DNA of 672 nucleotides from a phage. Under the pieces are notes generated by a model. It was not told the DNA's origin. It was given only the letters and a program-made list of their open reading frames with translations, and searched no databases. Location of the stretch: the sequence record OP745095.1. The stretch is one strand, 5' to 3'. Within the stretch, counting starts at the first letter, position 1. Each line of letters starts with the position of its first letter. Position numbers and translations under genes: made by a program. Shown piece by piece: positions 1 to 672 of the stretch.

Positions 1-672
1 ATGGCGCTGCCGAACGGCAGCCAGATTTTTATTGAACAGACCCGCGCGGCGACCGAAATTGAAGCGACCGCGGTGAGCAACGCGGAAAACCCGGTGGCGA
101 CCGTGGCGAGCACCACCGGCATTGTGAAAGGCGATTATGTGCTGGTGCTGGAAAGCGTGTGGGCGGCGTTTAAAAACCGCGTGATGCGCGTGAAAGAAGT
201 GACCCTGGATGCGAGCATTACCCTGGAAGGCGATAAAAACACCAGCACCGCGGATCTGAACAAATTTCCGGCGGGCGGCGCGAGCACCTTTGTGAAAATT
301 GAAAGCTGGATTGAAATTCCGTGCGTGAGCGATATTGCGAAAAGCGGCGGCGAACAGCAGTTTTATACCAAACAGTGCCTGAGCGATGATCGCGAAAAAC
401 AGATTCCGACCTTTAAAAGCGCGACCAGCATTGCGTATACCTTTGATTTTGATTATAGCAACCCGATTACCCAGCTGCTGATTGGCTATGATGAAGATGG
501 CAAAACCCGCGCGATGCGCATGTTTGTGCCGAAAGCGAGCTATCCGATTCGCACCTTTAGCGGCACCCCGAGCTTTGATGATATTCCGAACACCGTGATG
601 AACGAAGATGAAACCACCATTCTGACCATTAGCCTGGATGGCAAATATACCCATATGAAAGAATTTGTGGCG
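1..672 (+). CDS. Partial CDS (open at the 3' end): putative phage major tail tube protein, lambda gpV-like, N-terminal tube-forming domain
   Basis: Seen in sequence: ATG at 1-3 and frame +1 open through 672 (224 codons, no stop), while frame +2 has TGA at 74-76 and frame +3 has TGA at 33-35. Translation begins MALPNGSQIFIEQTRAATEIEATAVSNAENPVATVASTTGIVKGDYVLVLESVWAAFKNRVMRVKEVTLD and ends TILTISLDGKYTHMKEFVA. Alternating hydrophobic/polar runs (IFIEQ, YVLVLESVW, STFVKIESWIEI, SIAYTFDFDY, TILTISLDG) suggest a beta-sandwich fold. From memory of lambda gpV: SIAYTFDFDYSNPITQLLIGY resembles [20 protein letters not shown], and DGKTRAMRMFVPKASYPIRTFSGTPS resembles [24 protein letters not shown]. The family call is motif-level recollection, not a computed alignment. 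Confidence 0.5.
   Translation, partial: MALPNGSQIFIEQTRAATEIEATAVSNAENPVATVASTTGIVKGDYVLVLESVWAAFKNRVMRVKEVTLDASITLEGDKNTSTADLNKFPAGGASTFVKIESWIEIPCVSDIAKSGGEQQFYTKQCLSDDREKQIPTFKSATSIAYTFDFDYSNPITQLLIGYDEDGKTRAMRMFVPKASYPIRTFSGTPSFDDIPNTVMNEDETTILTISLDGKYTHMKEFVA

Follow-up and report, generated by a model that had tools for sequence, protein, structure and literature searches.

Introduction

Close relatives of the tail tube protein considered here have been solved as tubes in phages T1 and NBD2. The cryo-EM structure of T1 gp41 divides the subunit into a beta-sandwich assembled from residues 2-15, 95-113 and 135-218, an Ig-like insert comprising residues 16-94, and a beta-hairpin at residues 114-134 (PMC11945409). 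The outer domain of NBD2 gp39 has been termed E1 and described as FCCH-like (PMC13576161), the same domain being termed Ig-like in T1 (PMC11945409). Five architectures are distinguished within the family PF08813, of which 'barrel + N-terminal FCCH' is one and three others have C-terminal Ig domains (PMC13576161).

In the cryo-EM structure of gp39 the subunits of adjacent rings are joined by a disulfide bond (A:C108-H:C126, 2.04 A), of which there are six per interface, and these disulfides raise the thermal stability of the tube (PMC13576161). The T1 tube has the same inter-ring bond (PMC11945409), homologous cysteines are present in 9L0F and 9JLF, and the bond as a whole is confined to one branch of PF08813, amounting to about 14% (PMC13576161). 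Two further sets of contacts are described for gp39, with R184 and E204 forming an intra-ring salt-bridge hub and K124 and D149 an inter-ring pair (PMC13576161).

Escherichia phage vB_EcoS_ESCO41, referred to below as ESCO41, belongs to the genus Nouzillyvirus of the Drexlerviridae and was obtained from chicken caecal content. The phage is the type species of Nouzillyvirus and a component of a phage cocktail directed against APEC. Its authors found neither an integrase nor an excisionase and inferred a virulent lifestyle (PMC10269720). Here we describe a stretch of DNA, 672 nucleotides in its entirety and referred to throughout as the window, that encodes the tail tube protein of this phage.

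Results

Identity of the encoded protein

When compared with phage genomes by tblastn, the protein encoded by the window is 100% identical, over 224 of 224 residues, to the translation of positions 18169-18840 of the ESCO41 genome (KY619305.1/NC_047820.1). The natural gene at this location extends from 18169 to 18843 and its product is annotated as 'major tail protein' (gp63; YP_009789945.1). An exact-sequence look-up returned one contig only, which is the 50.8-kb ESCO41 genome.

Profile searches assign the protein to PF08813 (Phage_tail_3) with a score of 161.8 bits against a cut-off of 24.2 (E = 1.4e-47; profile positions 1-163 of 165), and to PHROG 584 (major tail protein) with E = 4e-76, residues 1-220 aligning to profile positions 3-216 of 218. 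Solved tail tubes are also recovered as relatives, namely 9L0F (T1 gp41; 1.4e-68) and 9JLF (3.7e-68), both matched over residues 1-220, together with 9KMH. All of the relatives found by tblastn that are at least 79% identical reside in phage genomes of 48-53 kb. The protein is a tail tube protein that is already known and ordinary, and its mildly noteworthy traits, namely a predicted inter-ring disulfide pair and an N-proximal decoration domain, are common to well-studied homologues.

The labels attached to some of its orthologues deserve comment. Several that are 95-99% identical are recorded as 'tail fibers protein' or 'tail fiber protein', and one as 'hypothetical protein' (examples among these records are MZ826699.1, OL449681.1, ON062054.1, OR767160.1, OR472545.1 and PP069513.1); these are misannotations that will propagate. 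A T1-like tube protein that is 53% identical is also encoded in the genomes deposited as 'Campylobacter phage A118/A123' (MG065675.1, positions 31469-32128; MG065669.1, positions 31453-32112). There are 21 such records among the matches, each of about 50 kb and giving C. jejuni as the host, which is odd for a family whose hosts are mostly enterobacterial, and the host may have been mis-assigned.

Codon usage of the window

Frame 1 of the plus strand begins with an ATG at position 1 and stays open, without a stop, for 224 codons through base 672, and no other ORF of more than 50 amino acids is found in the window in any frame. This reading frame uses 20 codons for its 20 amino acids, exactly one for each residue type (for example Ala is GCG on 20 occasions, Thr ACC on 24, Ser AGC on 18, Ile ATT on 17, Leu CTG on 11 and Arg CGC on seven), and we take the set to be the 'most frequent E. 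coli codon' table of common reverse-translation tools. The natural ESCO41 gene specifies the same protein with 47 different codons. The two DNA sequences are 79.5% identical overall and only 50% identical at third positions, and the longest run that they share is 20 nt. Compared by megablast with 50,697 phage records, the window DNA gave no match. The window thus fails as natural genomic DNA, as it has no synonymous diversity and its exact nucleotides are absent from those phage records.

Because a single codon stands for each type of residue, and because the DNA has no match while the protein is matched at 100%, we are all but certain that the window is a mechanical back-translation of the complete, catalogued ESCO41 gp63 protein and is not natural DNA. 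This origin explains why the window starts at the ATG, why it lacks a stop codon at position 672 and why it has no flanking sequence, as it was not cut from a genome. Similarly, the GC content of the window (52.2%, with a GC3 of 63.8%, against 50.4% GC for the natural phage gene) is set by the codon table and not by the phage. Short ORFs in alternative frames, such as one of 50 amino acids at positions 135-287 on the minus strand, are by-products of the back-translation and are meaningless.

The reason for the back-translation could be either a pipeline artefact or the design of a synthetic gene. Deliberate design, perhaps for the production of recombinant nanotubes as with NBD2 gp39, would agree with the use of one preferred E. 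coli codon per residue, and homologous tube proteins are being produced recombinantly as nanotubes (PMC13576161). We nevertheless consider it improbable that the window is a designed gene and not a pipeline product, as an expression construct would include a stop codon and no such record was recovered among the 50,697 phage records searched by megablast. Strict one-codon-per-residue designs are, moreover, normally avoided in practical codon optimisation. On either account the DNA is not natural, and whatever biology it reflects belongs to ESCO41 gp63.

Completeness of the protein

An earlier, sequence-only reading of this DNA had stated that there is no stop codon by position 672, leaving at least 224 residues in frame, and this is accurate, frame 1 of the plus strand being open from 1 to 672. 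It went on to suggest that the ORF runs off the 3' edge and is possibly cut short, and noted that a different or absent C-terminal module would be informative. Comparison with the natural gene shows neither a truncation nor a further module. That gene has an AAGGAG ribosome-binding site upstream and ends ...GTT GCG TAA, with the stop codon directly after codon 224, and just 3' of the stop there is a GC-rich hairpin (GGGGGCTATTGCCCCC) followed by a T-run. A stop immediately after position 672 was among the outcomes that the reading had itself set against its proposal, and the natural TAA is in substance that stop. As this TAA follows codon 224, and as the profile matches reach the ends of the models, the 224 residues are the whole protein, with no C-terminal module.

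For the protein to continue beyond the window into a C-terminal decoration module, whether Ig-like as in lambda gpV or of a new kind, one would have to set the 672 bases without a stop codon, and the C-terminal Ig domains of some PF08813 members (PMC13576161), against several lines of evidence. The natural stop is followed by the terminator-like hairpin, the annotated product is 224 amino acids in length, and NBD2 gp39 is likewise exactly 224 amino acids. Both the profiles and the solved tubes are matched end to end, and neither a Big nor an Ig family is matched by the window protein in Pfam at E <= 1. The missing stop is in any case accounted for by back-translation. We attach next to no probability to a continuation of this kind, and treat gp63 below as a complete protein of 224 residues.

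Domain organisation and the two cysteines

The alignment of gp63 with T1 gp41 and NBD2 gp39 is collinear over residues 1-220, with five gap positions, three of which are contiguous. The domain limits in ESCO41 numbering (Table 1) are inferred by mapping the published limits through this alignment.

Table 1. Features of the window and of the ESCO41 genome around the natural gp63 gene. Positions are those of the window.
Feature	Position	Strand	Basis
Tail tube / major tail protein gp63 CDS, 224 codons without stop	1..672	+	tblastn identity, PF08813, PHROG 584
Beta-sandwich (tube-forming) segment 1, residues 1-15	1..45	+	Alignment with T1 gp41; inferred mapping
Inserted outward-facing decoration domain, residues ~16-99 (predicted)	46..297	+	Alignment to T1 gp41 16-94 and NBD2 gp39
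Beta-sandwich segment 2, residues 100-118, including Cys108	298..354	+	T1 gp41 95-113 via alignment
Cys108 codon TGC, predicted inter-ring disulfide partner	322..324	+	Invariant alignment column; gp39 homology
Long beta-hairpin arm to neighbouring ring, residues 119-139, including Cys126 (predicted)	355..417	+	T1 gp41 114-134, gp39 arm
Cys126 codon TGC, other predicted disulfide partner	376..378	+	Invariant alignment column; PMC13576161
Beta-sandwich C-terminal bulk, residues 140-224, including R184 and E204	418..672	+	Alignment; natural stop; profile ends
Upstream of tube: terminase small and large subunits, HNH, portal, MuF-like, HNH, protease-like, decoration protein, major capsid, connectors, tail terminator			PF13554 (terminator)
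Downstream of tube: TAC, tape measure, gpM-like, gpL-like			PF08748 (TAC); PF06791/PF09718 (tape measure); PF05939 (gpM-like); PF05100 (gpL-like)
Further downstream: gpK-like, gpI-like, gpJ-like central fibre			JAB/NlpC-P60 (gpK-like); PF06805 (gpI-like)
Elsewhere in ESCO41: holin/endolysin/spanin, primase, helicase, recombination genes, methyltransferases, tRNA-Arg			

By homology, gp63 is predicted to consist of a barrel into which an FCCH/Ig-like domain is inserted near the N-terminus, and to lack an Ig domain at the C-terminus. Pfam searches at E <= 1 detected neither an FCCH nor an Ig domain in this insertion, and a single-sequence AlphaFold2 model of gp63, made with no alignment, had a mean pLDDT of 30.6 and a pTM of 0.18. 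The decoration domain is also the region in which ESCO41 and its homologues diverge most.

There are exactly two cysteines in gp63, C108 and C126, and both of these, like R184 and E204, are unchanged across the aligned gp63, gp39, T1 gp41 and 9JLF. K124 and D149 are conserved between gp63 and gp39, the position of K124 being occupied by Tyr in T1 and 9JLF. The protein thus has the cysteine pair that characterises the disulfide-crosslinked branch of PF08813, of the gp39/T1 gp41 type, and a Cys108-Cys126 inter-ring disulfide is predicted for gp63 from these homologues. One might go further and suppose that the domain at residues ~16-99 has a genus-specific function, such as the reversible binding of a host surface glycan or a role as target or decoy for host immune sensors of tail tube proteins, or that the Cys108-Cys126 link behaves differently in Nouzillyvirus tails, but none of our results points to either and we regard both as highly improbable.

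Genome neighbourhood of natural gp63

The genes around natural gp63 in ESCO41 (Table 1) include a long non-contractile (siphovirus) tail module, in which the terminator, tube, TAC, TMP and distal/tip genes are found in order. The sequence-only reading had proposed a downstream search for tail assembly chaperones with a programmed frameshift, for a tape measure protein and for tip proteins, and all of these are present beside the natural gene. It had also pointed to capsid, terminase, portal and lysis genes as bearing on whether the gene comes from a tailocin. All of them are present in ESCO41, which in substance has the complete canonical morphogenesis module that the reading had named as an outcome against anything novel.

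In what follows, positions in ESCO41 are given in locus coordinates (L001), in which 10750-11378 corresponds to NC_047820.1 18918-19546. The chaperone gene, gp62, ends ...GTA AAA AAC TAA and has a slippery A_AAA_AAC at L001 11058-11064. Its -1 frame is open for 104 further codons, to L001 11378, and the extension matches DUF1799 (PF08809) with E = 3.4e-14. Together, gp62 and its -1 extension are predicted from these sequence features to be the classic G/GT arrangement. An apparent gap of 348 nt before the true tape measure gene arises because the frameshift extension, which fills it, has no annotation.

The annotation of this region has other peculiarities. In RefSeq the PF08748 chaperone gp62 (L001 10750-11378 with the unannotated -1 extension) is labelled 'tail length tape measure protein'. 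The head module is broken up by two HNH_3 endonuclease ORFs, of which the first separates the terminase and portal genes (L001 2019-2567) and the second the MuF-like and protease genes (L001 4655-5137), and an ORF annotated as 'endonuclease VII', with no Pfam hit at E <= 0.01, lies between the gpM-like and gpL-like genes (L001 14718-15227). All three are probably homing-endonuclease insertions. Terminator-like GC-rich hairpins with T-runs are found after the tube gene (L001 10679-10702) and after the -1 chaperone ORF (L001 11380-11395), the latter being terminator-like on both strands. Both hairpins would fit an attenuation by which much more tube protein is made than products of the downstream tail genes.

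Free phage, prophage or tailocin

The window offers no gene context of its own, and the earlier reading had left it undecided whether the gene belongs to a prophage, a tailocin or something else. This can be settled from the natural gene, which resides in the complete ESCO41 phage genome, and both the tailocin and the prophage are excluded. No match to the natural gp63 gene was found by blastn in 5,426 complete E. coli genomes, and none of the 80 annotated features of ESCO41 is an integrase. Among 185,579 species-representative genomes of bacteria and archaea there was one match, to a 3.7-kb MAG contig.

That contig (CALKAR010000264.1, 'uncultured Peptococcaceae') encodes at positions 2261-2932 (locus L005) a tube protein of 223 amino acids that is 99% identical, and its flanking ORFs have the sizes and order of those in ESCO41. 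It is likely to be a coliphage fragment mis-binned into a Firmicutes MAG, and not a domesticated cluster.

The tail tube proteins of F-type pyocins belong to the same fold superfamily (cited in PMC13576161), and together with the missing context of the window this is what could be said for assigning gp63 to a domesticated F-type tailocin or a resident prophage, and not to a free virulent phage. Such an origin can scarcely be credited. The exact protein occurs on a single contig, a complete phage genome that has terminase, portal, protease and capsid genes as well as genes for lysis and replication, and the close relatives are all in phage genomes of similar size. An F-type tailocin is rejected on the terminase, portal, protease and major capsid genes directly upstream and on the lack of any chromosomal match in E. 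coli. A temperate prophage is rejected as no integrase is annotated, in keeping with the report that ESCO41 has neither integrase nor excisionase (PMC10269720), and as no integrated copy occurs in the 5,426 E. coli genomes; the only match among the 185,579 genomes is the MAG contig with the same phage neighbours. With the full set of head and packaging genes present and no copies in the E. coli genomes searched, we exclude both a tailocin and a prophage as the source of gp63 and take it to be the tube protein of a free phage.

Discussion

The value of these observations is mainly one of quality control, as an ORF that appears to run off the edge of its sequence arises here from a back-translated protein record. 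The codon usage, GC content, missing stop and flanks, and alternative-frame ORFs of back-translated windows hold no biological information and are not to be mined.

A mechanism for gp63 can be proposed by transfer from the solved tubes of NBD2 gp39, to which it is 81% identical, and T1 gp41, to which it is 55% identical. In this model six copies of gp63 would form a ring through their beta-sandwich domains, with a beta-barrel lining the lumen, and the stacked rings would follow a helix around the tape measure protein, beginning at the tip complex and ending at the tail terminator. The G/GT-type chaperone made through the -1 frameshift would probably aid this assembly. The beta-hairpin arm would touch the next ring, and disulfides would link Cys108 of one subunit to Cys126 of another in the adjacent ring, with six such links per interface, so stabilising a flexible tube. 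The N-proximal Ig-like/FCCH-like domain (residues ~16-99) would decorate the exterior, and the finished tube would act as the conduit for ejection of the DNA.

Comparison with known systems

F-type tailocins, such as the F-pyocins, have a flexible non-contractile tail, the tube protein of which shares its broad fold class with gp63. They differ in being chromosomal and in having no head or packaging genes, whereas ESCO41 is a free phage with head, packaging, lysis and replication genes and has no chromosomal copy in 5,426 E. coli genomes.

The sequence-only reading had taken the protein for a lambda-like tail tube, and part of this stands, in that gp63 is the tube protein of a siphovirus and has the fold superfamily of lambda gpV. 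The two have the same role, forming the hexameric tube rings of a long non-contractile tail, and the gene order of lambda (terminator, tube, G/GT chaperone, tape measure, M, L, K, I, J) is like that of ESCO41. Membership of the gpV family does not stand. Lambda gpV has PF16461 (Phage_TTP_12) and a C-terminal Big_2 domain (residues 161-239), and matches both profiles, neither of which is matched by the window protein at E <= 1; on PF08813 gpV scores 23.8 bits, just under the cut-off of 24.2. Pairwise similarity is marginal, with 22% identity over 81 residues (BLASTP, E = 0.005). On the evidence of these family assignments, gp63 and gpV appear as proteins that do the same job and are distantly related, in separate families. 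The decoration domain is predicted to be N-proximal in gp63, and in the gp63/T1-type tubes it stands in place of the C-terminal Ig domain of gpV (PMC11945409, PMC13576161).

T1 gp41 (9L0F; PMC11945409) and the 9JLF/9KMH protein are nearer, at 55% identity to gp63 over residues 1-220 (E ~1e-68). Their domain order is like that proposed for gp63, consisting of a beta-sandwich, an inserted Ig-like domain and a beta-hairpin, and their cysteines homologous to those of gp63 form inter-ring disulfides. They differ in length, at 222 amino acids, and are shorter by five residues in the decoration domain and by one at position 181.

Nearer still is gp39 of NBD2 (Drexlerviridae, Vilniusvirus), the tube of which was solved by cryo-EM (PMC13576161). 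It resembles gp63 in its length of 224 amino acids, in its 81% identity and in having Cys108, Cys126, R184, E204, K124 and D149 at the same positions, and it falls in the same PF08813 family with, by homology, the same layout of a barrel and an N-proximal FCCH-like domain. It belongs to another genus, and about 19% of its residues are not those of gp63, most of these differences falling within the outward-facing domain and the extreme C-terminus. ESCO41 gp63 itself has the same 224 residues as the window product, and only the DNA differs, being 79.5% identical and, in the window, without its stop codon.
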